DNA from: an uncultured bacterium
Lineage (GTDB): Bacteria; Krumholzibacteriota; Krumholzibacteriia; WVZY01; JAKEHA01
DNA length: 36,023 bases
Direction of reading: 5' to 3'
Assembly (NCBI GenBank): GCA_964500785.1
Contig: CAZCQM010000003.1
Span: 1-36,023, forward strand
The notes under the pieces were generated by a model. That model was not told the DNA's origin. It saw only the letters and a list, made by a program, of their open reading frames with translations, and ran no database searches. The position numbers and the translations under genes were made by a program. Below, in pieces: positions 10,374 to 33,832 of the stretch; positions within the stretch are counted from its first letter, which is position 1; every line of letters starts with the position of its first letter.

Positions 10374-13300
10374 TCACGGGCTCCGCGGGGCGCTCTCGAC
10401 GGGAGATTCGTCCGCCAGCGCGCGGAAGTACATGCGGATCAGATCTTCGAATTCGCCCGGGGCCTTGAGCTGCATGGCGCGCTGGATCTCGTCGCGCAGT
10501 GTCCTGGCGTCCACGCCCTCGGGGCTGCGGCCCAGCGCCCTGGAGAAGATGTCTTCGGCGGTGACGCTCTCGCGCTCCTTCTCGTAGTCGCGCGTGTGCA
10601 CGGAACGGGACGCGTCGAGCATGCGGCTCAGGATGCGCTGCTGCTGGTTGACGAGGTCGTCGCTGATGTTGCCCTGCTCGAGCTGTTTGCTCACGGCCTC
10701 CATGTCCTCGATGGCCCGGTCCAGGCGGCCCAGCGGTTTGCCCTGGTCCTTCATCGAATTCTGAATCTGTTTGGCGATCTCCTGCAGCGAACGCTGCTGG
10801 CCCGCGAGGCGATCGAGCTGCGCCTGACGCTGCTGGCGGAGCATCTCCTCGGCCATGTGCATCTGCAGCATCTGCTGGGTCTCCTGAATGATGTTCTGCT
10901 GCGTCGGGATCATCGACTGCAGCATTTGCTGCGCGGTCGGCTGGCCCTGCCCGTTCATTCCCGACTGGCACGACTTGGCGGTGCGCAGCATCTCGATGGT
11001 CGCCTTGTTCAGCGACTCGACGGCGTTGCGCGCGTGCACCGTCGACATGTAGGGCTTGTCCTGTTCGAGAAAGAGCATGGAGCTCTGCATGCGCGTGATG
11101 GCCTCGCCCAGCGCTTGCATCAACGGACGCGGCACCGACAGCGACATGTTCCCCATCTTCGTGATCTCGTCGGCGATGTTCTGCGTGGCCTGCAGCTGGC
11201 TCAGCTGCTGCTCCGCGGCGCTTCCCGTCTCGCTTTCGTTCTGGTCCGTCGACGGCGCCTGGAGCCCCTCGGCCAGCGCTTCCTGGCGGAACGACAGGTC
11301 CAGCGTCTGGCGCGCGTATTTCTGGAGGTTCAGGGCCATCTTCGAGTTCATGTTCTGACTCATCGCCTGCTGCGCCTGCATGGCGCGGCGGAACAGGCTC
11401 ACCATCTTCTCCATCGCCTGCTGCTGATTCTGCATGGCCTGCTGCCGCTGCTGCTGCTGCAGGTTCCGGGCGGCGTCGCGCATGTCTTTCTGCGGTCCCT
11501 GCTGGGACTTCATCTCCTGCGACATCTGCTGCATCTGCTGCTGCGCCTGCTGATCGTCGAGCTCGTTGGCGACCTGCTCCGCCGACTTCTGCATCTCGTC
11601 CGCCTGCCGGGCCAGCTCCTCCTGTCGCTCCGACAGCTCGTTCATCTTGCCGGAGTCCTTCGGTGACGTCTGGCTCGTCTCCTCATTGAGGTCGGCCTGC
11701 TTCTCCATGAGGTCCTGGGCCTTGCGCACCATTTCCTCCATGCGCTGCTCCTTCTGGAGCTGTCGCAGCAGACTCTCCGTGCGCTCCAGGCGCTCGAGCA
11801 TGTCCTTCGTGTTGAGCTCCATCTTCTCCAGCGCCTGGCGCACGTCGTCGGGGTTCATCTTCTCCATCGCCTTGCGCAGCTCTTCCATGTACTTCTGCAG
11901 CTCGGGCGAATTGACTTCGTCGAGAAGCTTGCGGATCTCCTCCATCTTCTCGCCGATCTGCTGGGTGGTCATCTCGTTCTCGGACAGCTCCTGCATCGTC
12001 TTGTCGAGCGACTCTTTGACGTCGCTGAGCTTGTCCTGGACGGCCTTCTGCGTTTCGATGGCGCGGTCGAACTCTTTCTTCTGCGACCACTCCATCTTCT
12101 CGGTCTTGAGATACTCGCGCGAGATCTTCTCCAGCTGCTCGCTCAACTCCCGGCTGTCTTCGATGGCGGCCTTGAGCGTGTCGTCCCGGTGTGTCTCCTC
12201 GTGCTTCGCGTTGTCGTAGAGCTCAGACATGGTGGGAACCGTCACGCGGAAGATCTTGCTGCGCGCAATACCGGGGCCGGTGACCACATTGTTGTCCGCC
12301 ACCTCGACGAAATACTCCACCGAGTTCCCGGGGAACAGCGTCATGTCCGAGAGGTCCCAGTGATACGCGACCGCCATTTCCTTGCGGTTGTGCGAATCGC
12401 CGAGTGAGATGGCGGCCTTGCGGTAATCGGTGGCGTCCGCTTTGCGGAAGTAGAGCGTGGCGCGCGCCACACCGTAGTCGTCCGACGCGACGAACCCGAT
12501 GTCGAGCTGCTGCGTGCGCGGCATGGCGGCGTCGGCGCCGGGCTGGATCACGTCGACCGTCGGCGGGCGGTCCTTGAAGACCTCGATGGTGTAGGAGAGC
12601 GGATCGCGCGTCGAAAACCCCAGGGAATCTTCGAGCAGGACGCGGTAGCTGCCGTCCTTGAGCGCGGCGAATTCGAACCCGAGGTCGCGCCCGGTATGCT
12701 CGACGGGCTTCTTGTCCTTGCCGTCGAACTCGACCCACGCCTCGCGCAACGGATTGTTGCTGCGCGCCTGCACGCGCACCTTCGAACCCTCCAGAGCCTG
12801 GACGTTGCCCGCGTTGTCCGCGAGCGTCGTCGCCGGCTCCTTCGTGTACGCGGGCGGCGTCACCGTAACGCGCACGTCGGTCAGGATGGGCTCGTGGACC
12901 ACCGTGATGGTGTAGCTCTCGGTCTTGTAGTCGCCCGACTTGAAGAAGTACTGCGTCGTGTTCCGGATGTCGTGGAACGTGTAGTTGTAGCGATCGAAGG
13001 CGGCGTCGGCGCTCGGATCGCGGCGCACGAGCGTCGTGGGCTCGTTCTTCCAGAAATCGCTGGAAAGGTTGAACGCGATCTCGACCGGCATGTCGGTCTC
13101 GCCGAGGTCGATGCCGCTCACCGTCACGTCGTTTCCCGCCAGCACAGTGATGTCTCCGGGTTCCGCGTGGATATTGGGGCCGTGGGGCAGCGAAGCCACC
13201 TGCCGCGGCGACACCACGCGGCGGCCCGCGTCGGTGACCACGTTCGGATCGAAGACGGCGATGCCGAGCAGCGCGACCAGGCCGACCAGCGCCAGCGGAA

Positions 13301-13757
13301 CGACCGCGAGGTGCCGGCGGTCCAGGAAGAGCGCGCGCACGCGCAGACCCGAGAGCTTCTCGACGGCCTGGCGAATGACCTCGCGGATCAGCTCCGGCGA
13401 GTAGCGGCGCGCCGCGGTCTCGTCGCGGCTGAACTCGAAGCCGGCGCGGACCAGCTCCTTGAGGTCCTCGCGCCGTTCGATCTCGGAAGCGAGGTGGTCG
13501 ATCCGCGGCAGCCGCGCCAGCGGCCAGACCACGAAGTAACCGAACGCGGCGACGATCAGCGCGATGGCGATGCGTGCGACCCACGTGGCCACGGCGAGGC
13601 TCGGCCCGTGGACGAGTGCGGTCCACACCACCAGCGCGAGCAGCACCCAGGATGCGGCGGCCAGCACCGCCACCAGTCCCGCGCCCGCATGGAGCGCGGC
13701 GGTCCGGAGCAGAATCGAGCGCAGGTACCTGCGAAGGCTGTCGTTCCCGGATGCCAT
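10374..13757 (-). CDS. DUF4175-like membrane-anchored protein with Ig-like domains and a long coiled coil
   Basis: Three N-terminal TM segments; VTPPAYT, DRPPTV, SDDYGV and YFVEVADN..GP motifs; Q/E/M-rich coiled coil; QQRILSRMLDA...R and YFRAL near the C-terminus. Confidence 0.8.
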   Translation of the reverse strand: MASGNDSLRRYLRSILLRTAALHAGAGLVAVLAAASWVLLALVVWTALVHGPSLAVATWVARIAIALIVAAFGYFVVWPLARLPRIDHLASEIERREDLKELVRAGFEFSRDETAARRYSPELIREVIRQAVEKLSGLRVRALFLDRRHLAVVPLALVGLVALLGIAVFDPNVVTDAGRRVVSPRQVASLPHGPNIHAEPGDITVLAGNDVTVSGIDLGETDMPVEIAFNLSSDFWKNEPTTLVRRDPSADAAFDRYNYTFHDIRNTTQYFFKSGDYKTESYTITVVHEPILTDVRVTVTPPAYTKEPATTLADNAGNVQALEGSKVRVQARSNNPLREAWVEFDGKDKKPVEHTGRDLGFEFAALKDGSYRVLLEDSLGFSTRDPLSYTIEVFKDRPPTVDVIQPGADAAMPRTQQLDIGFVASDDYGVARATLYFRKADATDYRKAAISLGDSHNRKEMAVAYHWDLSDMTLFPGNSVEYFVEVADNNVVTGPGIARSKIFRVTVPTMSELYDNAKHEETHRDDTLKAAIEDSRELSEQLEKISREYLKTEKMEWSQKKEFDRAIETQKAVQDKLSDVKESLDKTMQELSENEMTTQQIGEKMEEIRKLLDEVNSPELQKYMEELRKAMEKMNPDDVRQALEKMELNTKDMLERLERTESLLRQLQKEQRMEEMVRKAQDLMEKQADLNEETSQTSPKDSGKMNELSERQEELARQADEMQKSAEQVANELDDQQAQQQMQQMSQEMKSQQGPQKDMRDAARNLQQQQRQQAMQNQQQAMEKMVSLFRRAMQAQQAMSQNMNSKMALNLQKYARQTLDLSFRQEALAEGLQAPSTDQNESETGSAAEQQLSQLQATQNIADEITKMGNMSLSVPRPLMQALGEAITRMQSSMLFLEQDKPYMSTVHARNAVESLNKATIEMLRTAKSCQSGMNGQGQPTAQQMLQSMIPTQQNIIQETQQMLQMHMAEEMLRQQRQAQLDRLAGQQRSLQEIAKQIQNSMKDQGKPLGRLDRAIEDMEAVSKQLEQGNISDDLVNQQQRILSRMLDASRSVHTRDYEKERESVTAEDIFSRALGRSPEGVDARTLRDEIQRAMQLKAPGEFEDLIRMYFRALADESPVESAPRSP

Positions 13758-13774
13758 GCGTTCCCTTTCGACCG

Positions 13775-14482
13775 CTACATCAGCACGCGGCTGGTGATGG
13801 CGTACATGAGGACGTTGACCGCCATCTCCATGGCCTGTTCCCGCTTCTCGGGCGGGTCGTGGTGGACTTCGGGATCGGCGAGGCCGTCGCCGATATCCGA
13901 TTCATACACATAATAGAGCACGACGCGCCCGTTGACCGTGACCCCGAACCCCTGGGGGCGCTTGCCGTCGTGCTTGTGGATCTTGGGCAGCCCCGGAAGG
14001 TCGTAGAAACAATGGTAGATGGGATGGTCGTTGGGCAGCTCCTCGAACGGCTTGTCGGGGAAGAGATCGTGCACCATCGCGTGCACGGAGTCGTTCATCC
14101 CGTAGCTGTCGTTGATGAAGAGGAACCCGCCGTCTTCGAGGTACGCGCGCAGGATGTCGCGCTGCTCGGGCGAGAACCGGATGGTGCCGTGACCGGTGAC
14201 GTACAGGAAGGGATACGCGCGCAGGTTCTCGTCTTCCAGCGACACGACCTTCTGATCGCGGGCGGTCTTGATGCCCGTGCGGCGCTCGAACTCGACCAGC
14301 CAGTTGGGGACCGACGACGGGTTGTTGTACCAGTCGCCCCCGCCGGGATACTTGAGCCGCGCGATCTGCACACCATACTCTTCGGCCGGGTCGCCGGCCG
14401 CCATCTGACCGCGGGCCTCCCCTGAGACCATCAGCGCGGCCAGGAGCCCCATCATCGCCACTGTCGCTCGACCCATCCGCAT
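13775..14482 (-). CDS. DUF4159 domain secreted protein
   Basis: IARLKYPGGGDWY, YPFLYVTGHG, YLEDGGFLFIND.YG, HPIY, GLPKIHKHDG, DIGDG and A..MAVN motifs. Start reassigned to ATG 14482 (14476 is an alternative) ahead of a signal peptide. Confidence 0.9.
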   Translation of the reverse strand: MRMGRATVAMMGLLAALMVSGEARGQMAAGDPAEEYGVQIARLKYPGGGDWYNNPSSVPNWLVEFERRTGIKTARDQKVVSLEDENLRAYPFLYVTGHGTIRFSPEQRDILRAYLEDGGFLFINDSYGMNDSVHAMVHDLFPDKPFEELPNDHPIYHCFYDLPGLPKIHKHDGKRPQGFGVTVNGRVVLYYVYESDIGDGLADPEVHHDPPEKREQAMEMAVNVLMYAITSRVLM

Positions 14483-14548
14483 GGATAACTCCGTGAGTTC
14501 AATTATAGTTAACGGTCTCGCCGGTTGCAAACGCCGCCTCGCCGGACT

Positions 14549-14564
14549 TGCACGTTGCGTGCCC
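14549..14564 (-). promoter_or_regulatory. Putative sigma54 (-24/-12) promoter for the DUF4159 operon
   Basis: GGGCACGCAACGTGCA has GG-N10-GC spacing; consensus is TGGCACG-N4-TTGCW. Confidence 0.55.
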
Positions 14565-14659
14565 CCCATCGGGGAACGACGGGGAATCCTCCGCAATGGA
14601 CCTTCGGGTCCCGTACTCGGGCTCCCGGTCATCGGTTGCAAGAAATCCCGTGCGGCCCC

Positions 14660-14676
14660 TGTCCAACCTTTTGACA
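14660..14676. promoter_or_regulatory. Palindromic TGTC-N9-GACA site, possible enhancer (UAS)
   Basis: TGTCCAACCTTTTGACA, about 130 bp upstream of the inferred sigma54 start site. Confidence 0.4.
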
Positions 14677-14732
14677 GATAGAAACGGGACTCCGGCGAGA
14701 GCCGGCGGCCACCAGGCCCGGGAGGTAATGAC

Positions 14733-15929
14733 ATGAAACGATACTCGCTTACGCTGATGCTCGCACCGCTCCTGCTCATCGGAGCCGGATGCGCCAGCTA
14801 TGACCGCGAGCTCCTCGGCGACCCCAAGCCGATCGCCCTGCAATCAACCGAGTCGGACTACGACGAGCCCGCCTCGTACGACATCGACCAGCCGGCCGCG
14901 TACGACTACGACCCGCCCGCGCCGGTCGAGAACGAACCGGCCATGGGAGCCACCGCCGGCGCCGTCGTGTCCTACACGTCCTACCGACCCGCCCGGCGCG
15001 TCGTCGCGGTCGATCCGAGGGACATGTTCGTGGACCTCACCTTCTGGGGTACGTGGTACCACCTGGATGGTTTCGGCTCGGTATGGCGCCCCTCGCTCGT
15101 GCTGGGCTGGCGCCCGTTCGAGAACGGCCGGTGGGTCCACACGACATACGGCTGGATGTTCGAATCCTACGACACGTTCGGATGGATCACGTATCACTAC
15201 GGGAACTGGTTCTACAGCAACAGGCTGGGCTGGGTCTGGGTTCCCGGGTACGAATGGGTCGCGTGCAATTGCGATTGGATGCGGATTGACGATATTATCT
15301 TCTGGGCACCGCTGCCGCCGGTGGGTTATGTCTGCCCGCGGCCGTGGGAGCCACGCGGTGGCGACTGGTGGATCGGTGTGCGCGGCCGCAATTTCGAGGA
15401 CGACCACATCGGCAACTATCGGGTCCCGCCGGTGAAGTTCAAGTCCGAACGCCGCAAGGCGGAAGTGATCCACCGGGGCCCGGATACGAAGTACGTCGAG
15501 ACGATCACCCGCCGTCCCGTGAAGACGATTTCGGTCGATCTCCAGGTGCGCGAGGTTCGCGGGCGGAAGATCACGCGGGTGAAGATGCCCTCGGATCGGA
15601 CCAAACCGCCGCGGTACACGCCGGCGCCGATCCGGGCACCGCAGCCGACCCCGCAGCCGGTGGTCCGCAAGGGGACGCAGCCCCGCGTGACGCAGCCGCC
15701 GTCCGGATCGAGCGGAGGAACGGTCTCGCGCCCGGCGCCGGTCAAGAAACAGCCGGCGCCCGTCGAGAGGAAGTCGACGCCGTCGACGTCGAAGTCGCGC
15801 GGTTCGTCGGACTCCGGCAAGGCGACGCCCGCGAAGGCGAAATCGAAAGGATCCTCGTCCTCGAAGGGTAGCTCGGGGTCGAAATCGAAGAATGAAGGAG
15901 GAAAGGCGAAGCCCGCCAAGAACCGGTAG
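14733..15929 (+). CDS. DUF6600-like lipoprotein with a Pro- and Lys/Ser-rich tail
   Basis: SD GGAGGT; lipobox GAGC; WGTW..., WRP, GRWV.T.YGW, GWITYHYGNW, GWVWVPG.EW and WAPLPP. Confidence 0.82.
   Translation: MKRYSLTLMLAPLLLIGAGCASYDRELLGDPKPIALQSTESDYDEPASYDIDQPAAYDYDPPAPVENEPAMGATAGAVVSYTSYRPARRVVAVDPRDMFVDLTFWGTWYHLDGFGSVWRPSLVLGWRPFENGRWVHTTYGWMFESYDTFGWITYHYGNWFYSNRLGWVWVPGYEWVACNCDWMRIDDIIFWAPLPPVGYVCPRPWEPRGGDWWIGVRGRNFEDDHIGNYRVPPVKFKSERRKAEVIHRGPDTKYVETITRRPVKTISVDLQVREVRGRKITRVKMPSDRTKPPRYTPAPIRAPQPTPQPVVRKGTQPRVTQPPSGSSGGTVSRPAPVKKQPAPVERKSTPSTSKSRGSSDSGKATPAKAKSKGSSSSKGSSGSKSKNEGGKAKPAKNR
14853..14924 (+). repeat. Three degenerate 24-nt in-frame tandem repeats
   Basis: Encode SDYDEPAS / YDIDQPAA / YDYDPPAP. 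Confidence 0.6.
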
Positions 15930-25710: not shown

Positions 25711-26442
25711 CTAGACCCGCCCCAGCAGGTGGAGCATGTCCCGGACGGCCCGGTCGAGGCCCGTGAACACGGCGCGGGCGAGGATCGAGTGGCCGATATT
25801 GACCTCTTCCAGGTAGGGAATCTCCAGCATCCGGGTCACGTTGTGGTAGTCCAGCCCGTGGCCGGCGTGGACGCGCATGCCGAGGTGCCGGATGGCGTTG
25901 GCGGCATCCTTGAGCGCCCGGACCTCGTCCTCGACCTGGTGGCGCGGCGCGTTGGCGAAGGCCCCGGTGTGCATCTCGACGGCGTCGAAGCGGAAACGCG
26001 CGGCTTCCTGGATCTGGTTCAGGTCGGGGTCGAGGAAGGCGGTGACGAGGATCCCCGCGTCCTTGAGCGTCGCGACCAGCTCGCCCATGCTCGCCGAGGC
26101 GTCGACCAGGTTGAGGCCGCCCTCGGTGGTGATCTCCTCGCGCTTCTCGGGAACGATGCAGACCGCGTTGGGGCGGATCGCCAGCGCGATCTCCTGCATT
26201 TCGGCCGTGGCCGCCATCTCCATATTCAGGGCGGTCTTGACCACCTCTCGGATCAGGCGCACGTCGCGGTTCTGGATGTGCCGGCGATCCTCGCGCAGGT
26301 GGACGGTGATCTGGTCGGCGCCCGCCATCTCGGCCGCGGCGGCCGCGGAGACGGGGTCGGGCTCGACGGTCTTGCGCACCTCGCGCAGGGTCGCCACGTG
26401 GTCGACGTTCACTCCGAGTCGAATCAGCGGTCGTTCGGTCAT
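25711..26442 (-). CDS. pdxJ: Pyridoxine 5'-phosphate synthase
   Basis: LGVNVDHVATLR, ITVHLREDRRHI, VPEKREEITTEGGL, EMHTG, HAGHGL and EVNIGHSI. Start at ATG 26442, overlapping the upstream stop (ATGA). Confidence 0.98.
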   Translation of the reverse strand: MTERPLIRLGVNVDHVATLREVRKTVEPDPVSAAAAAEMAGADQITVHLREDRRHIQNRDVRLIREVVKTALNMEMAATAEMQEIALAIRPNAVCIVPEKREEITTEGGLNLVDASASMGELVATLKDAGILVTAFLDPDLNQIQEAARFRFDAVEMHTGAFANAPRHQVEDEVRALKDAANAIRHLGMRVHAGHGLDYHNVTRMLEIPYLEEVNIGHSILARAVFTGLDRAVRDMLHLLGRV

Positions 26443-27647
26443 GGGGTCTCCTGCGGGGTCGCGGACGGCGAGGCGTCCATCAGTTCGCACACCGTCACCA
26501 GCTCCACGCCGGCGCGTTCGAAGGCGCCGGTACTCTCGCGGAGCGCTTCCAGCGTCCACGGGTGCGGGTGGCCGATGCCGATCGCCGACCCGTGGGCTTT
26601 CGCCAGCCGAATGAGCTCGCGGATGCGGTCCTCCACGTCCTCGCGGCGGTCGGTGGCATCGTCCAGAAACAGACTGTTGGACGCCGAGCGCATACCCGCG
26701 GCCACCGCCGCATTATAGGCGACCGACTTCGGGGACGTCAAAGAATCGAGGAAGAAAACGCCGTAGGGCTTGAGAGTGGCACACACGGCGTCCATGACGC
26801 GGGCGTCGGTGGTGGCGAGCGACCCCTGGTGGTTGTTGACCCCGTCCACGCCGGGCAGGCTCTCCATGTACTCGCCGACCAGGGAGCGGATCTCGGCGTC
26901 GCTCATCGCCGTGCGAACGACTTCGAAATCCTCGCGGGCGGGCTCGGCGGGCTCCATGGGCAGGTGGAGCATCACGCAGCGGTGCGCCTGGCGCGCCTCG
27001 CGGTAGACGGCCTGCGACGCGCGCAGCTCGGGGAGAATCGACACGGTGAGCGGCATGGGCAGCGCGATGATCTCCGCGGGGACGCCGCCTTTGGTGTAGC
27101 CGAAGTCGTCGATCACGATGGCGACGCGCGGCAGCGGCGGCGCGCGCCGGAGCGCCTCCGCCGCGACGTGCGGCGCGAGGCGGCGGATGGTGATGCGGTG
27201 CGTGTCGCGCGTGTTGGTGCCGACGTTGAAGACGAGCGTGCGCCCGCCGTCGATCTGTTCGGCGCGGCGCACGCGCGCGCCGGCCAGGCGGACGGCGCCG
27301 GTGAGCGCCACGTTGACGAGGAGCAGGTCGGTGGACTCGTCGCAGGGGATGTCCCAGCGGACGGGTTTGCCCGCGCCGCCCGCGTCGTGGACGCGGATGC
27401 GCCGCCGCAGGCCGCTCGCCTCCAGCGAGTGCTTGAGCGCGATGCCGATGTCGGTCTGGATGCGCGGGTACGCACTTTCGACGCCGTGGTCGACGAGAAA
27501 GACGCCGCCGCGCGTGGTCTGGAGGAAGCGGACCGACGCCACCCCCACGACGGCGAGGATCGCGAGGACGGCGACGAGCCCCTTGAAGGCGCGGGAGGCG
27601 GGGGCGGTCGCCGAAGGACGTTTTCGCTTGGAGCGGGTGCGCGGCAT
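26439..27647 (-). CDS. Divergent polysaccharide deacetylase (YibQ family), membrane-anchored
   Basis: VAIVIDDFG, MLHLPMEP, GVNNHQGS, FFLDSLT, FLDD and AIGIGHP; N-terminal TM anchor. Confidence 0.92.
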   Translation of the reverse strand: MPRTRSKRKRPSATAPASRAFKGLVAVLAILAVVGVASVRFLQTTRGGVFLVDHGVESAYPRIQTDIGIALKHSLEASGLRRRIRVHDAGGAGKPVRWDIPCDESTDLLLVNVALTGAVRLAGARVRRAEQIDGGRTLVFNVGTNTRDTHRITIRRLAPHVAAEALRRAPPLPRVAIVIDDFGYTKGGVPAEIIALPMPLTVSILPELRASQAVYREARQAHRCVMLHLPMEPAEPAREDFEVVRTAMSDAEIRSLVGEYMESLPGVDGVNNHQGSLATTDARVMDAVCATLKPYGVFFLDSLTSPKSVAYNAAVAAGMRSASNSLFLDDATDRREDVEDRIRELIRLAKAHGSAIGIGHPHPWTLEALRESTGAFERAGVELVTVCELMDASPSATPQETP

Positions 27648-27677
27648 GACGGGGCGGTGTGGCGATCCGCCGCGCGG

Positions 27678-27706
27678 AGCCTATCGAGCGCCCCCGGAGG
27701 TGTCAA
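27678..27706 (-). promoter_or_regulatory. Putative sigma70 promoter for the YibQ-like gene and pdxJ
   Basis: TTGACA (27706-27701), 17 nt spacer, TAGGCT (27683-27678). Confidence 0.6.
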
Positions 27707-27716
27707 GGACGCGGCG

Positions 27717-28385
27717 TCAGTCGCGGTAGAGCGCCTTGACCATCCCCCAGGTCGTTTCCTGCGACGACGCGGCGGGCGTCACGGCGCGGGCCACGCTCGT
27801 CCCCAGGTCGTGCAGCTCGACCAGGCGCCACTGCGGCTCGCTGTCGGTGCCGATGTTGCGGACGATGAACCGAGCTTGCGATCCCGCGGCCGGCTGGTAC
27901 TGGATGTCGGGCTCGACGTCGATGTTGAAGTAGTAGCCCACCGTCGCCTCATTCAACATCTCACCGGGGTACCCCGGCAACGTGGTGTCGGTCCAGTCGA
28001 CACCGTTCTCGAACTGCAGGTCGAACTCGATGCGCTTGCACCGGTTCGATCCCGCGTAGTTGGGATCGAACATGCGCGAGTTGTAGAGGATGTCGTCCGC
28101 GCGCCCCCACGAATCCGGAATGCCGCCGCCGACGTCGCCGGTTGCCAGGAAGAACACGAAGTCGGCGTCGAGCAGCTCGTCGTACTTGGCGATGTTGCGC
28201 CGGTTGTACGCGACCTCGACGTTGTTGAGCACGGCTTCCTTCGTGTCCAGGGTTTGGAACGACGGACCGGGCGGCACCGGCGGCGCGACCGGCTCGTTCT
28301 TCGGGTCCGAGCACGACGCGAGCGCGGCGAGAGCCAGGATCGCGCCGATCGTCATGGCACGGAATCGCCAGGGAGCTCGTCTCAT
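27717..28385 (-). CDS. Hypothetical lipoprotein: one copy of the array domain plus a C-terminal TWG motif
   Basis: Lipobox LASC; EAVLNN..AYN.R....YDELLD.DF.F...WG...F...WRLVE..D; ends ETTWGMVKALYRD. ATGA overlap with the upstream gene. Confidence 0.85.
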   Translation of the reverse strand: MRRAPWRFRAMTIGAILALAALASCSDPKNEPVAPPVPPGPSFQTLDTKEAVLNNVEVAYNRRNIAKYDELLDADFVFFLATGDVGGGIPDSWGRADDILYNSRMFDPNYAGSNRCKRIEFDLQFENGVDWTDTTLPGYPGEMLNEATVGYYFNIDVEPDIQYQPAAGSQARFIVRNIGTDSEPQWRLVELHDLGTSVARAVTPAASSQETTWGMVKALYRD

Positions 28386-29602
28386 GATCGGTACAGGGCT
28401 TTGACGCGGCCCCAGGTGCTCTGCTGGACCGCCGCCGGGGCGTCGCCCGCGGCGGCATCGATGTATTGCGAGCCCAGGTCGCGCATCTCGACCAGGCGCC
28501 AGTGGGGATCCGCATCGGTTCCGGCGTTGCGGACGGTGACGTAGGCCCGGGACCCCGGCGGTGGAAGGAGCCGGGTATCGGGCACGATGTCGATCTGGAA
28601 GTCATAGAACACCGTCGTCGTGTACCACGTTTCGTCCGGGTGCGACGACGGCGCAAACGAGACCCACAGCACGCCCTCCTCGAACTGCAGGTCGAAGCGG
28701 ATATTCGTGCAGCGATTGGGACCGATGTAGCTCATGTCGAACATGCGCGAGTTGTAGAGCACGTCCTCCGCGTACCCCCACTGCTCGGGCAGCCCGTTGC
28801 CGATGTCGCCCACGCTCAGGTAGAACGTGAATTCGGGGTCGAGGAGCGCCTCGTATCTCGTGATGTCGCGCTTGTTGTACGCCGCTTCGACGTTGTTGAG
28901 GACCGCTTCCCTGGTCGTGAGAGGAATGACCGCCGGAGCGCCGTCGCGATAGAGTCCCTTCACCGCGCCGAACGTCGCATCCGTGAGCGACGGCGGATGC
29001 GGCGGATGGGGCGGAAGGTTGGGCAGAACGCCGTCGGTCCATTCGACCAGCCGGAAGTCGGGGTCCGACTGCGTTCCGACGTTGCGAACGGCGATGTCGG
29101 CGTACGCCCCGGCCGGCGGCACGTACCGCTCGCCGGACTCGACGTCGATGCTGAAGGAATAGAGCAACCGGGCGGAGAACCAGATCTCACCCGGGTGCGA
29201 CGGCGGATTGAACGCGTCCCACTGCACGCCGTACTCGAACGGGATGTCCAGGTCGATGTGCGTGCAGCGGTTCGGGCCCTCGTAGGCGGGATCGAGCAGG
29301 CGGCTGCCGTAGATGGCGTCGGTCGTGTGCCCCCACTGATCGGGCAGCCCCTCCGCCACGTCGCCGGCGAACGCGTGGAAGGTGAAGTCGGCGTCGAGGA
29401 GGCGGTCGTATTCCTGGAGATTGCGGGTGTTGCAGGCGACCTGGAGGTTGTTCAGGACGGCGTCGGGCGTGCTCAACGGCCGGAACTCATTCGGCGGCGG
29501 GCACGGATCGCACTCGGGGGGAACCGCCTCGTCCCCGCAGGAGATCACTCCCGACAGGAAGCCGAACGCGAGCGCGCACGAAAGAACGATCGAGCGGCGC
29601 AT
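28382..29602 (-). CDS. Hypothetical lipoprotein: two tandem copies of the array domain, with internal and terminal TWG-like motifs
   Basis: Lipobox VISC; duplicated domain; internal ATFGAVKGLYRD and terminal STWGRVKALYRS. Confidence 0.87.
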   Translation of the reverse strand: MRRSIVLSCALAFGFLSGVISCGDEAVPPECDPCPPPNEFRPLSTPDAVLNNLQVACNTRNLQEYDRLLDADFTFHAFAGDVAEGLPDQWGHTTDAIYGSRLLDPAYEGPNRCTHIDLDIPFEYGVQWDAFNPPSHPGEIWFSARLLYSFSIDVESGERYVPPAGAYADIAVRNVGTQSDPDFRLVEWTDGVLPNLPPHPPHPPSLTDATFGAVKGLYRDGAPAVIPLTTREAVLNNVEAAYNKRDITRYEALLDPEFTFYLSVGDIGNGLPEQWGYAEDVLYNSRMFDMSYIGPNRCTNIRFDLQFEEGVLWVSFAPSSHPDETWYTTTVFYDFQIDIVPDTRLLPPPGSRAYVTVRNAGTDADPHWRLVEMRDLGSQYIDAAAGDAPAAVQQSTWGRVKALYRS

Positions 29603-29700
29603 AGCTGGATTCTCCCCTCGTTAGAAGGTCCGTCTGCGCGGCTTCGACCCCTCACCCGGGGGCAGCTCTCTACAGTGGCAGCTTCGGCCCGGGCACTCGA

Positions 29701-30288
29701 TCAGGCGCCGAGGTCGCGGAATTCAACCAGCTTCCATTCAGGCGCCGCATCCGTGCCGACGTTGCGCACGGTGAACTGGGCCTGCGACCCCGCCGCGGGC
29801 TGATACTGCGTATCGGGCTCGACGTCGATGTTGAAGTAGTAGACCACGACCGCCAGGTACCACGTTTCATTGGGATAGTCCTGGGGCACAACCGGGATCC
29901 ACTGGACCCCGTCCTCGAACTTGAGGTCGAACTCGATCCGCTTGCACTTGGGGTACTGCGGCCCCGGATCCTGGCTGAAGAGCAGACCCGTCAACCGAAC
30001 CTCCTCCGCGCGTCCCCACTGCTCGGGGATCTGCCCGCCAACGTCGCCTGGCGCCAGGAAGAAGGTGAAGTCGGTATCGAGCAGCTCGTCGTACGTCGTG
30101 ATGTCACGCTTGTTGTACGCGTACTGAATATTGTTGAGGACTGCTTCTCTGGTCGTCCGCGGCAGCTTGGTGTACGTCTGTGGCGGCGCAACGACATCGG
30201 GTGGGGCCGGCTTCGGGTCGAAGATGCACGACGCCGACAGCATCGCGAGAGTGAGTAGCCCGCATAGAAGAAAACTTCTCTTCAGCAT
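29701..30288 (-). CDS. Hypothetical lipoprotein: one copy of the array domain, no TWG tail
   Basis: Lipobox SASC-IFDP; same domain; stops at WKLVEFRDLGA. Confidence 0.87.
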   Translation of the reverse strand: MLKRSFLLCGLLTLAMLSASCIFDPKPAPPDVVAPPQTYTKLPRTTREAVLNNIQYAYNKRDITTYDELLDTDFTFFLAPGDVGGQIPEQWGRAEEVRLTGLLFSQDPGPQYPKCKRIEFDLKFEDGVQWIPVVPQDYPNETWYLAVVVYYFNIDVEPDTQYQPAAGSQAQFTVRNVGTDAAPEWKLVEFRDLGA

Positions 30289-30329
30289 AGGGTGCAGATC
30301 CTTTCCGCGAGACGGGTCGCTCGGGCTTT

Positions 30330-30359
30330 ATAATACACCAGTTGAGCCATTAACGTCAA
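30330..30359 (-). promoter_or_regulatory. Putative sigma70 promoter for the lipoprotein array
   Basis: TTGACG (30359-30354), 18 nt spacer, TATTAT (30335-30330) in an AT-rich gap. Confidence 0.55.
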
Positions 30360-30416
30360 GCCATCAAATAAGTTACCATGAATTCCCATCCTGCTAACCT
30401 TCCGTTGCGAGCCATC

Positions 30417-31022
30417 TTACGGGCTCAGGCGGCTTCGCAGGATGCCGCGCAGGTAGCCCCAGGTCGTGTACCCGGCCACCGTTTCCACTTCGTTCCAGAA
30501 CGTGACGCGCCAGTTGCCGTTCTCCAGCCGCACATCGATCTCGGCGACGCCGCGGTAGCTCAGCGTATCCGTCGGGGCCGACTTGTTGACGATCTCCAGC
30601 GCGTAGGGCGATCGGAAACGTACGAACGTGCTCTTCTGAATGAGAGGCGGCTCGAGACGAAAGTCCACCTTGATCGTCTTCGCGTCCGAAAGCATCAGGT
30701 CGAGCGCATCGATCTCCACCTGCTTCCCCCACCCGTCGAACACCCCGGTCCCGATGAAGTTCTGGTCCAGCGAGTCCTGGAGCGTGGGAGAGAAGATGAA
30801 ATTGGTGCTGATGGCGCGCTCGTAGTTCGCGTCGGTCAGGCTCTCGTTGAGCGACTTCCTCATGGCGAGGAACGGCTTGTCGGGCGAGTCCAGCGTGACC
30901 TGGTCCTGCCCCGCCTGCCCCGGTGGCTGCGCCTCCCGCGTGTCGAACAGGCACGCGGGAAGGAGTGCCGGAACCAGCACCAGCACGACGCCCACCAGAA
31001 TTCTGCGTGACGCGATCATCAT
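30417..31022 (-). CDS. Hypothetical lipoprotein, divergent member of the same domain family
   Basis: Lipobox LPAC-LFDTRE..PP; NYERAISTNFIFSP...WGKQVE...WRVTFWNE; ends TTWGYLRGILRSRLSP. Confidence 0.82.
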   Translation of the reverse strand: MMIASRRILVGVVLVLVPALLPACLFDTREAQPPGQAGQDQVTLDSPDKPFLAMRKSLNESLTDANYERAISTNFIFSPTLQDSLDQNFIGTGVFDGWGKQVEIDALDLMLSDAKTIKVDFRLEPPLIQKSTFVRFRSPYALEIVNKSAPTDTLSYRGVAEIDVRLENGNWRVTFWNEVETVAGYTTWGYLRGILRSRLSP

Positions 31023-31027
31023 GGTTC

Positions 31028-32959
31028 CTAGAACGGGTAATTGAACTCCGAGCGCATATCCCAGTAGTCCTTCTCGGCGTCGCTGCCGAATCGGCTGAAT
31101 CGCTTCACCTTGCCCAGCTGGAAGCGGAGCGTCCGGTTCTGCCCCCAGTCGTACTGCCCCCGCGTCCCCACCTGGATCGACCCGTCCGGCGTCCTGCTCT
31201 CATCGCCGGTTTCGACGTCCCGGTCCCAGAAGTTGTTGTACTGGTACTCCGAGTACACGCCGACGTGATCGGTGATGTTGTAGTCCATGTGGAGCAGCAT
31301 GCGATCGCGCCGATCTTTGCGTGCGACGTTCAGGAGATCCTCGCCGCCCGGTCCGATGGGGAGGTAGGACCCGCTGTCGTGCAGTGTGAGTCCGTAGTCC
31401 AACCGGAATCGAATATGGTTGCTCGGGCTGTAGTTGAGCTGATTCGTGAGCGTGATGTTGCGGTCCAGGAAGTTGTCTTCCGGCTGATACACGAAATCCG
31501 TGTACTCGATGGCGAGTCCGTAGGTCTGCGTGATCGACAGACGCGGGTTCATCGTGTAGGTGAATCCGGGACGCAGCTCCCACAGCTGGCGCGAGCGGTT
31601 GTTGGTCGACTGGCTCGCGTCGATGTTGACGAAATCGGTGGCCGTGTAGGCGAGAGCGATGTTCGTCGCGACCTTCTTGAAGACGCTGGAATTGATCCGG
31701 AGGTTGACCGTCGTGTCCAGCTGGTCGCGATCGCGCGGGTTGGCCTCGTAGTCCAGATAGAAGGACTGCAGGAGCTGCATACTTCCGCTCAGATCGACGG
31801 ACATGGTCCGGGTCAGCGGGTGCCGGAGCCCGACGCTCACGCGCTTCCTCTTGTCCTTCGTACTCGCGATCGACTGCGGACCGAGGTCGCGCAGGTTGTT
31901 GCGGTTCTCGAACTGCACGGTGGCCGACGTCCGCCACGGCATGACGTACGACACGTTACCCCGCACGCCGTCTCCAACCGTTCGGCTGAAACGCGTCGTC
32001 TGTACCAGGTAGTCGAATTGCTGTTCGTCGTGCGTCGCAACGAGCCGGATGGAGAGTGCCTTCAACGGCTGGGAGTTGAACGAAATCATCGTGGAGCGGG
32101 TGTCGCGCGTTTCGGTTTCCGGCTGGACGTTTTCCGCACCGGCCAGCTGCCCGCCCAGCGCACCGATCGCCTGGTCCAGGTAGTAACGCACGCCATGGTA
32201 GCGGTTGTAGTCGACACGGACGTCGATGCTGTCGCTCAGTTCCACGCGGACCGCGCTGGACAGCGAGTCCTCGCCGCTTCCGAGACCCGTGTACAGGGTG
32301 CCTGCGCTTTCCGATTGATCGCTCGACTGCGCGTAGGCACCGCGTGCCTGGACGACGACACGGTCTCCGATCAGGTTGTAGCCGAGCCCGCCGTTGGCGC
32401 TACCTGCGAGGGACTGGTCGTTCTTGTACGTGCGCTGGCTCTCCAGCACGTTTCCGCTCAGGGATCCGTCCAGGCGCAGGTCGTGGAGCGTTCGCTGCAT
32501 GGTGGCTCCCGCCTGCAGCGTCCGGTCGTTGAGAATGAAGTCCTGGGTCGTTCCCCCGACTGCGATCGAGCGGTTGAACACCCGGCTGTCGTTGTACGTC
32601 AGGCCGCCCCGGATGTCGTAGCGGAAGGTGTGGATAATCCCGAACGAGAGGCGCTTGTTGTCCTCGAAGCGGTTCTGCAGGCGATAGTCCTTCTCGTCCT
32701 TGGACACGCCGAAGTTGACCATGGGCCCGTACGGCGTAAGAATAGAGGCGCGGAATTCGTTCATCATGCCCACGTTCGACACGTTACCCGTGATTCGGTT
32801 GATGTACGTTGGGGAGAACCGGTAGCCGGCGGTGGCGGGTACTAACGAATCCGGCATCTCCATCGAGGTGAAGAGCGAATCGGTCTGCGCAGACGCCGCC
32901 GTCGCCGCGAGCATCCCCGCCGCGACCAGCAACCATCCTGCGATGCGCCTCGCCTTCAT
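31028..32959 (-). CDS. Putative outer-membrane beta-barrel protein of unknown family
   Basis: Signal peptide (ATAASA); alternating amphipathic beta-strand pattern throughout; C-terminal MRSEFNYPF, typical of BAM substrates. ATG at 32959. Confidence 0.8.
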   Translation of the reverse strand: MKARRIAGWLLVAAGMLAATAASAQTDSLFTSMEMPDSLVPATAGYRFSPTYINRITGNVSNVGMMNEFRASILTPYGPMVNFGVSKDEKDYRLQNRFEDNKRLSFGIIHTFRYDIRGGLTYNDSRVFNRSIAVGGTTQDFILNDRTLQAGATMQRTLHDLRLDGSLSGNVLESQRTYKNDQSLAGSANGGLGYNLIGDRVVVQARGAYAQSSDQSESAGTLYTGLGSGEDSLSSAVRVELSDSIDVRVDYNRYHGVRYYLDQAIGALGGQLAGAENVQPETETRDTRSTMISFNSQPLKALSIRLVATHDEQQFDYLVQTTRFSRTVGDGVRGNVSYVMPWRTSATVQFENRNNLRDLGPQSIASTKDKRKRVSVGLRHPLTRTMSVDLSGSMQLLQSFYLDYEANPRDRDQLDTTVNLRINSSVFKKVATNIALAYTATDFVNIDASQSTNNRSRQLWELRPGFTYTMNPRLSITQTYGLAIEYTDFVYQPEDNFLDRNITLTNQLNYSPSNHIRFRLDYGLTLHDSGSYLPIGPGGEDLLNVARKDRRDRMLLHMDYNITDHVGVYSEYQYNNFWDRDVETGDESRTPDGSIQVGTRGQYDWGQNRTLRFQLGKVKRFSRFGSDAEKDYWDMRSEFNYPF

Positions 32960-32983
32960 CAACCCGTCCGACTCCGCTACGAA

Positions 32984-33832
32984 TCACGCACCCGCCGCCA
33001 CGACGCCGCGCGCCAGCAGCACGAACTGTTCCTTCGACAACGTCTCCGGCCGGCTCATCAGATCCACGCCCGCGTCGGCTGCGACGCGCGAGAGGACGTC
33101 CTCCGGCAGGGAATAGAAGGCGCGCAGGGTGTTGTGGACCGTTTTCCGTCGCTGCTGGAACAGGTTTCTGACCAGCGACACGAATGCGCTCAACTCCTCC
33201 GCCGTCACCGCCGGGCTCGCCAGCGGCACGAAACTCAGCACGATGGACGATACCCGGGGCCGGGGTTGAAAGGAGCCGGGTGCAACCTTCGTGACAACCT
33301 CGATGTCGTATAAGCTCTGTAGAATCACGCTGGTAATTCCATACACCCGGCTCCCCGGTCCCGATGCAATACGCTCGCCCACCTCGCGCTGAACCATGAT
33401 CACGGCTCGCCCGATCCGGTCGATCCCGTCGACGAGATAGCCGAACAGCACGTCCCGTGTCAGGTGGTACGGTATGTTCCCGATCAACGTGCACCGCTCG
33501 AACCCCCTCGACACCGCCAGCTCACCCAGGGTGACCCGGGTGAAATCGGCCGAAATCACTTCGACCCGACGGCGCTCGTCGGTGGCGCGTCCCAGGCGCC
33601 GGTCGAATTCGTCGTCCAGCTCGCGGACCAGCCGCCGGTCGAGCTCGAGCGCCAGCAGCCGCGCGCCGCGCGCGGCGACGTCCATCGTCAGCATGCCGTG
33701 GCCCGGTCCCAACTCCACGACGACGTCGTCGGCGTCAATACGGGCGGCGTCGACGATCTTCGCGGCAATGCCGCGGTCGTGAAGAAAGTTCTGGCCGAAG
33801 CGCTTCTTGGGGCGAAAGCGGCCTGCGTTCAA
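32984..33832 (-). CDS. rsmA: 16S rRNA m6,2A dimethyltransferase (KsgA)
   Basis: PKKRFGQNFL, VVELGPGHG.LT, ELD, IGNIPYHLT, MVQREV.ERI, F.PRPRV.S, FQQRRKT..N and RPETLS; TTG start. Confidence 0.96.
   Translation of the reverse strand: MNAGRFRPKKRFGQNFLHDRGIAAKIVDAARIDADDVVVELGPGHGMLTMDVAARGARLLALELDRRLVRELDDEFDRRLGRATDERRRVEVISADFTRVTLGELAVSRGFERCTLIGNIPYHLTRDVLFGYLVDGIDRIGRAVIMVQREVGERIASGPGSRVYGITSVILQSLYDIEVVTKVAPGSFQPRPRVSSIVLSFVPLASPAVTAEELSAFVSLVRNLFQQRRKTVHNTLRAFYSLPEDVLSRVAADAGVDLMSRPETLSKEQFVLLARGVVAAGA

Follow-up and report, generated by a model that had tools for sequence, protein, structure and literature searches.

In a stretch of 36,023 nucleotides from an uncultured Krumholzibacteriia-like bacterium (contig CAZCQM010000003.1 of assembly GCA_964500785.1; we refer to this whole stretch as the window), neighbouring lipoprotein genes end in much the same short peptide, which runs from Thr-Trp-Gly to an arginine and which we call the TWG tail. 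The locus poses two questions: is the tail a sorting or docking signal and, if so, is it read by the outer-membrane barrel encoded next to these genes? An earlier note on this DNA had proposed both. We find that the tail recurs on unrelated exported proteins in this genome and in others, and that on one kind of passenger it alternates with known C-terminal anchors. From these sequence comparisons and from structure models, we are inclined to think that the TWG tail serves Sec-exported proteins as a modular C-terminal tag for localisation or anchoring, in Krumholzibacteriia-like bacteria as well as in allied uncultured lineages of the Fibrobacterota-Chlorobiota-Bacteroidota (FCB) group.

The genome analysed comprises 3.27 Mb on 394 contigs and is 87.6% complete. 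Its SecD has its closest relatives, 82% identical, in metagenome assemblies titled Candidatus Latescibacteria and Candidatus Krumholzibacteriia. A regular expression for the motif matches 33 times in its six-frame open reading frames (ORFs) and 27 times in a set of crude gene calls. For the gene calls, the expectation from amino acid composition is 0.05, and 50 shuffles of the residues give a mean of 0.02 matches and a maximum of 1. A profile built from the last 18 residues finds 31 matches scoring 28.0–39.4 bits, each of them 0–5 residues before a stop; below these come a 201-aa protein of the window at 20.5 bits, then 14.5 bits, and noise at 11.5 bits or less. The consensus is P-V-x-V-[EQ]-x-[ST]-T-W-G-x-[VI]-K-[AS]-L-Y-R, that is, about 17 residues, followed by 0–7 residues. 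Across 30 tails W, G, K and R are invariant, while T, L and Y reach at least 90%. Most tails stop exactly at the arginine, and the rest have 1–5 extra residues.

In the codons of the tail the third positions are free to vary and the first and second are fixed. Therefore the conservation lies at the level of the protein, and a DNA repeat or mobile element in place of a peptide is excluded. We also exclude a peculiarity of the stop codon, with read-through into a C-terminal domain (CTD): TAG is the stop codon in 16 of the 32 tail genes, compared with 41% in the genome as a whole, and nothing resembling a CTD lies in frame downstream. Two further features of the tails may be recorded here. In 18 of 31 tails a cysteine stands 6–16 residues before the T, which hints at a disulfide pinning the start of the linker. 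And on contig C295 (739–2175) two ORFs on opposite strands overlap by about 1.4 kb, both with TWG-type ends (TWGHLKALYRE and ATLGGVKALYRDRR); most likely they represent a divergent pair of genes, about 220 aa each, with upstream shadow frames that happen to be open in this GC-rich DNA.

The proteins that carry the tail are small (134–478 aa) and varied. Once the last 22 residues are removed, 32 tail proteins fall into 18 groups with no BLAST link between them: one of 12, one of 3, the pair in the window, and 15 singletons. Their folds include NTF2-like domains, a beta-sandwich (the largest tail-bearing family, as modelled by AlphaFold2, AF2), a beta-helix and an NHL propeller; Pfam, run on 25 tail proteins, recognises the beta-helix in one and the propeller in one, and hardly anything else. 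By a crude and lax rule, a signal-peptide-like N-terminus is present in 30 of the 32, whereas the rule picks out 701 among the 2,435 crude gene calls (Fisher p 1e-14). The search of the whole proteome that the earlier note had recommended supports its picture of a C-terminal module on unrelated exported proteins.

No Pfam model (29 tail proteins scanned) and no NCBIfam model (34 scanned) covers the tail, and in particular these proteins have no match to TIGR04183, PF18962 or PF13860; together with the lack of a transmembrane (TM) segment, this bears out the view that the motif is unlike LPXTG, PEP-CTERM or the T9SS (type IX secretion system) CTD. Nor did we find a description of the tail in the literature on these phyla, searched with sorting terms and with written forms of the motif, a search that left bioRxiv supplementary tables of sorting signals outside its range. 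The TWG tail is probably an undescribed address or docking tag. What is new here is that it occurs across the phylum of Krumholzibacteriia-like genomes; also new are the evidence from choice-of-anchor domains, the homologous element in a barrel-adjacent NTF2-like lipoprotein, and a contrast between AF2 models, all of which are set out below.

Profile matches occur in 200 of the 201 sampled genomes of the phylum and in all nine of its families, at least about 3,280 matches altogether. Because the survey scored 44 candidates per genome, match counts are lower bounds, and the other genomes of the phylum range from 1 to at least 44 tails each. The five genomes examined from outside the phylum all have tails, with 16–66 profile matches each, and in the small phylum to which one of them belongs 12 of 12 genomes have matches. 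A DNA pattern for TWGx[VI]K[AS]LYR plus stop finds at least 130 stretches in the species genome collection; the 80 records listed are metagenome-assembled genomes (MAGs) titled Eisenbacteria or Eiseniibacteriota, Krumholzibacteriia, Latescibacteria or Latescibacterota, Gemmatimonadota, Fibrobacteraceae or simply "bacterium". Similar tails on unrelated exported proteins of related candidate phyla, which the earlier note had mentioned, are thus found. The 15 matches inspected in other genomes all end 0–7 residues before a stop, including those in long open frames and partial matches to the profile. Five control genomes (a Bacteroidota-titled MAG, a Nitrospinota MAG, Trichlorobacter, Labilithrix and a Verrucomicrobiae MAG) give no match, and a looser DNA pattern, which matches 27 times in this genome, matches nowhere in four of them.

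If the tail is an anchoring or sorting module, what do homologues of its carriers have in its place? Two carriers score above the NCBIfam cut-offs for choice-of-anchor domains, one of type W (NF041928, 194.8 bits against a cut-off of 45) and one of type V (NF041895, 82.3 against 42). The choice-of-anchor A domain is described, in the relevant part of 10.1101/2023.03.06.531300, as belonging to bacterial surface proteins that are anchored by one of several alternative C-terminal signals. The NHL carrier resembles the PEP-CTERM protein ScyF, with a score under the cut-off.

For the type V carrier (on contig C257), phmmer against 1.84 billion representatives yields 3,876 matches at E≤0.001, and we examined the best 150. 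Between 35 (strict regular expression) and 43 (loose) of these have TWG-type ends. A domain scan of 105 of the others, each of at most 620 residues, finds a FlgD_ig or Por_Secre_tail domain of the T9SS in 34 and Dockerin_1 in 4; judged by eye, one further end is PEP-CTERM-like and one consists of a TM segment and RRR. The TWG core is present in none of the 34 homologues that bear a CTD; on these sequences the tail and the T9SS CTD exclude each other on the V passenger. TWG tails, T9SS CTDs, dockerins and a PEP-CTERM-like end thus alternate on homologous passengers, and the tail fills the place that known sorting or docking modules take on them. This alternation with known anchors supports the tail as a sorting or anchoring module, and with it the sorting-signal proposal of the earlier note. 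The W carrier behaves differently: all 120 of its listed homologues have TWG-type tails (93 by regular expression and 27 variants by eye), and what they show is conservation of the tail, without alternation with other anchors. As to the V passenger itself, it often scores as a Reeler domain (PF02014), and several of its homologues end in a repeated ..GK[TA].N.[VL].[IL]NF[QK] module.

The mutual exclusion of tail and CTD could also mean that the tail is a minimal alternative to the CTD within the T9SS, read by a PorV-like shuttle, SprA or PorU, or holding proteins on T9SS-anchored partners. The machinery is at hand. The genome carries SprA and, adjoining a PorV-like barrel, a PorU that scores above the cut-off, and at E≤0.001 it has 92 matches to TIGR04183 and 96 to FlgD_ig, a very large T9SS secretome for 3.27 Mb; SprA is also present in all seven other tail-bearing genomes tested, and tail and CTD both finish with hydrophobic residues and then a basic one. 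However, SprA is equally present in the eighth further genome tested, G206, which has no tails, so that the co-occurrence is not specific and the T9SS is, on these genomes, a constant background rather than a discriminating partner. T9SS is common in Bacteroidota, yet we know of no such tail described there. The tail also lacks the CTD fold of about 70 residues, and no CTD protein of this genome is seen to carry it. We consider a T9SS role for the tail unlikely.

A related arrangement, with the TWG element directly before a T9SS CTD, was not seen in the lineages examined. None of the 84 listed CTD ends of this genome is preceded by a TWG element, the profile gave no strong internal match, and the pattern of TWG..Y, 5–15 residues and PNPF (one spacing and one CTD motif) finds 0 stretches in the species genome collection, which speaks against the T9SS alternative as well; the 34 CTD-bearing V homologues agree. 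The CTDs of this genome are themselves uniform (PNPFNP...SGVYFYRL...TRKMVLLK), often with a P-T-G-V-G linker motif in front.

The structure models predict a helix over W..L of the tail in two unrelated carriers, in quite different settings. In the AF2 model of the 222-aa protein of the window, the predicted local distance difference test score (pLDDT) is below 50 in the linker at 201–205 and averages 96 over the block 211–220, with a strand at 208–210 and the helix at 213–218; we read this as a TWG helix packed on the protein's own NTF2-like domain. In the beta-sandwich family, the helix (177–184) has a pLDDT of about 50 behind a domain above 90, and is thus modelled as free there. The helix was expected by the earlier note to be short, amphipathic and devoid of a TM segment. 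The last point stands, while the amphipathicity is modest: at 100 degrees the hydrophobic moment comes to 0.38, which puts it at the 71st percentile among random 10-mers drawn from this proteome.

These features bear on another possibility, namely that the tail is a lipid-binding anchor, an interfacial amphipathic helix with W, V, L and Y on one face together with K and R, in need of no protein receptor. The C-terminal helices of carboxypeptidases of the penicillin-binding protein 5/6 (PBP5/6) type act as amphipathic membrane anchors. The predicted helix in both models, the combination of Trp and Tyr with Lys and Arg, and the flexible linker in front of a segment that does not span the membrane would all suit such a role. 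But the hydrophobic moment lies at just the 71st percentile, ten residues make a very short anchor, and in the NTF2-like family the helix, modelled with high confidence, is by our reading on the protein and not free. Moreover, T, W, G, K, Y and R are near-invariant over several phyla, which is more than lipid binding usually requires; recognition by a protein is therefore favoured over mere lipid binding, and we regard a purely lipid anchor as rather improbable.

We now turn to the window itself, where five minus-strand genes in the same orientation span 27717–32962 in the ORF list. Their features are collected in Table 1.

Table 1. Genes of the window and the TWG elements within them.
Feature	Position	Strand	Basis
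222-aa NTF2-like lipoprotein, lipobox LASC, variable linker, canonical TWG tail	27717..28385	-	ORF, Foldseek, AF2
Canonical tail TWGMVKALYRD of the 222-aa protein	27720..27752	-	translation; profile 30.4 bits, 1 residue before stop
406-aa lipoprotein, two NTF2-like domains in tandem, TWG element after each	28382..29602	-	ORF; two BLAST segments to 222-aa protein
Canonical tail TWGRVKALYRS of the 406-aa protein	28385..28417	-	profile 35.8 bits, 1 residue before stop
Internal degenerate TWG element TFGAVKGLYR behind domain 1 of the 406-aa protein	28946..28975	-	translation; just 8.6 bits by profile
195-aa NTF2-like lipoprotein, no linker, no tail, ends ..EFRDLGA	29701..30288	-	ORF, paralog comparison
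201-aa NTF2-like lipoprotein, encoded by the barrel's conserved partner gene, family-specific TWG-like end	30417..31022	-	ORF, hhalign
Diverged TWG element TWGYLRGILRSRLSP of the 201-aa protein, family consensus [ST][WS]GxLRGx..	30420..30464	-	translation; 20.5 bits
644-aa outer-membrane beta-barrel, signal peptide, ends ..SEFNYPF	31028..32962	-	ORF; neighbouring gene

The 195-, 222- and 406-aa lipoproteins are paralogs of one another. The AlphaFold model of the 222-aa protein (mean pLDDT 89.3) has 179 Foldseek matches in the PDB at E≤0.001, with NTF2-like proteins on top, and Pfam gives for this domain only DUF4440 and SnoaL_2, both below threshold. The 222-aa protein ends in ..QETTWGMVKALYRD (also given as ..TTWGMVKALYRD) and the 406-aa protein in ..QQSTWGRVKALYRS (also given as ..STWGRVKALYRS). 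In both, as had been pointed out, an Ala/Pro/Ser-rich stretch lies between the last strand (..DLG) and the motif; the translations agree. This linker differs in length and sequence across the 24 tail-bearing homologues of the 222-aa family, which has 26 members, two of them without the tail. The 195-aa paralog stops right after its domain and does not carry the motif, and in each of 13 related genomes the gene in its position likewise has no tail, so the description of the motif as detachable holds good.

The earlier note had counted three C-terminal motifs in the window. Two of them, on the 222- and 406-aa proteins, are canonical. The third, on the 201-aa protein (..TTWGYLRGILRSRLSP), is by sequence a diverged, family-specific variant, homologous to a canonical tail but not one itself. 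The 201-type and 222-aa families are homologous by hhalign (probability 99.1, E 8e-19), with their TWG elements aligned, and the 201-type C-terminus, [ST]-[WS]-G-x-L-R-G-x.., is kept across phyla, with G, L and R nearly invariant. A fourth copy in the window had been overlooked: the degenerate TFGAVKGLYR inside the 406-aa protein, whose counterpart behind domain 1 is kept in all three tandem proteins (the 406-aa protein and two homologues).

Homology and models together suggest that the TWG helix may have its natural partners in NTF2-like lipoproteins, of which those without a tail could bind it in trans. Taken further, the helix and the NTF2-like lipoproteins of the barrel module would be a cognate docking pair, with the helix held in cis on the 201-, 222- and 406-aa proteins while the tail-less paralog captures, in trans, the free tails of dozens of other exported proteins. 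Such a tail-less lipoprotein would offer the same site empty, and so would tether exported proteins to a lipid-anchored receptor beside the barrel. This would be a helix-in-cone anchoring or hand-over system without known counterpart; we offer it as a speculation that is unlikely to be right.

Could the adjacent barrel instead be a dedicated receptor or translocon for the tailed proteins, as the earlier note had it? It adjoins three TWG-type lipoprotein genes in the window, its conserved partner lipoprotein has a TWG-like end, and it turns up wherever tails do: in 185 of the phylum's 201 genomes (121 of the 125 good-quality ones) and, by profile or protein search, in G201–G205, G212 and G214. 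Within the phylum, both tail and barrel are near-universal (200 and 185 of 201), so that profiling one against the other gives no contrast.

The barrel, however, is part of a conserved module. The order is rsmA, the barrel (about 640–700 aa), the 201-type lipoprotein (mature N-terminus C-L-F-x-[PT]-R), one or more NTF2-like lipoproteins of a second type, and a divergent deacetylase of Polysacc_deac_2 (PF04748); in the window it occupies 26439–33832. In 23 of 23 more distant loci a 201-type gene lies behind the barrel, and in 22 of 23 a second-type, tail-less gene comes next. These loci include MAGs titled Eisenbacteria and Fibrobacteraceae. Four genomes of the phylum of G203 have the same order, and a Bacteroidota-titled MAG has part of it. 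Second-type genes elsewhere are without tail except in one genome of this genus. The tail-less genome G206 also holds the pair of 201-type and second-type genes, on a contig that begins just upstream, with the position of the barrel outside it; this occurrence shows that the module has another, older function.

It is this conserved envelope module that explains the adjacency seen in the window, and the adjacency is therefore no evidence that the barrel reads the tag. The fixed members of the module are the barrel and NTF2-like lipoproteins, and canonical tails occur in it in one order only. The barrel is single-copy in this genome, whereas 29 tail genes sit elsewhere, none with a relative of the barrel nearby. 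Its look-alikes in the ESM Atlas, of about 625–641 aa, are unnamed proteins of Bacteroidota and Ignavibacteriota. On this evidence the proposal that the barrel is the receptor is not supported, and we judge it very improbable.

As to what the module does, 27 members of the barrel family have no Pfam family and no match to solved chains, the 201-type family likewise has neither a Pfam family nor a solved relative, and the barrel orthologues have F or L as their last residue. A search of this genome for LptD (PF04453) found none. It is conceivable that the barrel and the 201-type lipoprotein are a candidate LptD/LptE-like or other barrel-plug unit.

Elsewhere in the genome, the neighbours of tail genes raise one more alternative. 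On contig C10 (7324–15245), five tandem paralogous tail genes (11600–15245) are followed, 23 bases on and on the same strand, by a gene whose 1417-aa product combines Propeptide_C25, Peptidase_C25 and a FlgD_ig CTD. Three of five informative related loci show this arrangement too, one of them in another family at 41% identity. On contig C8 (8640–16147) another tail gene has a second C25 peptidase at a distance of 1.9 kb. The tail might then be a protease handle, recognised or processed by secreted gingipain-like C25 peptidases (PorU paralogs, which cut after basic residues) and marking their substrates or partners, and the fact that most tails end exactly at Arg, and others 1–5 residues further, would fit. 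But for most tail genes there is no C25 gene next door. Of the three loci that keep the C10 pattern, two belong to one genus, where shared descent suffices, and two other loci do not have it. The genome has roughly six C25-like genes, and the flanks of tail genes make up, by a rough estimate, about 8% of it, so that two such neighbours are weakly above chance. The adjacency could mean that tails are processed at their terminal Arg, or it could reflect no more than common ancestry, and we give the protease handle very little credence. The C8 locus itself consists of the tail gene, a DsbD_N-domain gene, an AhpC/TSA redoxin gene and a gene for a 1574-aa protein with Peptidase_C25, FG-GAP, fn3 and a CTD.

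Several observations weigh against the TWG tail as a localisation or anchoring tag. The choice-of-anchor argument rests on two of 34 scanned tail proteins. The signal-peptide rule picks out 29% of all genes. The 144 genes that neighbour tail genes include no recurrent family besides large proteins linked via T9SS CTDs, and no reader was identified there. Because the tag is without the TM helix and Arg cluster of the described small sorting signals, no sortase-like mechanism can be assumed. Finally, in the window's own family the tail may serve as a structural helix for which a free C-terminus is not required, a role that would fit its modelled pLDDT of about 96 and the internal copy that tandem proteins keep. 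An integral helix in a single family was what the earlier note had named as telling against a sorting signal; in the models the first half may apply to the family of the window, while confinement to that family is false.

With these points taken into account, how might the tag work? We envisage that the tail of an exported protein would form a short helix on a flexible tether, and that a protein receptor in the envelope would bind this helix non-covalently. By this receptor the cargo would be kept in place or handed on, much as by a docking module, and no cleavage by an intramembrane sortase would be involved. A 17-residue tag that has no TM segment and marks tens of proteins in each genome, in several uncultured phyla, would imply an undescribed reader and an undescribed localisation route. 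It would also improve the annotation of thousands of "hypothetical" exported proteins, and would define the surface or envelope proteome of lineages that are known from metagenomes alone.

It remains to compare the TWG tail with systems already described. The part of 10.1101/2023.06.07.544157 (Haft) that characterises small C-terminal sorting signals lists seven attributes, and the signals treated there all have a membrane-spanning segment and a sortase-like reader. By that list, the tail has five of the attributes (C-terminal position, many copies, an invariant signature, carriers with signal peptides, and carriers unrelated to one another) and lacks two: a TM helix, since only 10 residues follow the T and these include K and R, and a basic cluster, in place of which there is a single terminal R with a K four residues earlier. 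Thus the tail shares its place at the extreme C-terminus, copy number, signature motif and unrelated signal-peptide carriers with LPXTG/sortase, PEP-CTERM/exosortase, PGF-CTERM/archaeosortase, GlyGly-CTERM/rhombosortase and MYXO-CTERM/myxosortase, and some of its carriers have homologues with PEP-CTERM-like or TM-type ends; unlike these signals, it has no TM segment or Arg cluster, and no candidate intramembrane enzyme was found for it. The outer-membrane beta-signal, a terminal aromatic residue that closes an alternating hydrophobic strand, does not match: the tails end in R or in R and polar residues and are carried by small soluble folds, whereas the barrel ends in ..YPF.

The T9SS type A CTD (TIGR04183 and PF18962, here FlgD_ig-like) resembles the TWG tail in that, within the same group of bacteria, homologous passengers may carry either of them as their C-terminal module. 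As far as tested, the tail occurs only in genomes with T9SS, while T9SS also occurs without tails. The CTD is a folded beta-sandwich of about 70–80 residues and the tail a 10-residue helix on a linker, with no sequence match between them; CTD matches lie mostly in frames of several hundred to 3,411 codons, whereas the carriers of the tail are small.

Anchors of the PBP5/6 type are, like the TWG tail, short C-terminal helices without a TM segment on exported proteins, although the tail is much more conserved, shorter and modestly amphipathic. Dockerins differ in their repeats and calcium-binding loops, which the tail lacks, and in having a cohesin, where for the tail no cohesin-like receptor or scaffold has been identified. 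Yet a dockerin, too, is a small C-terminal module on a linker, borne by diverse secreted passengers, and in mechanism we judge the dockerin-cohesin system to be the most similar to the TWG tail.

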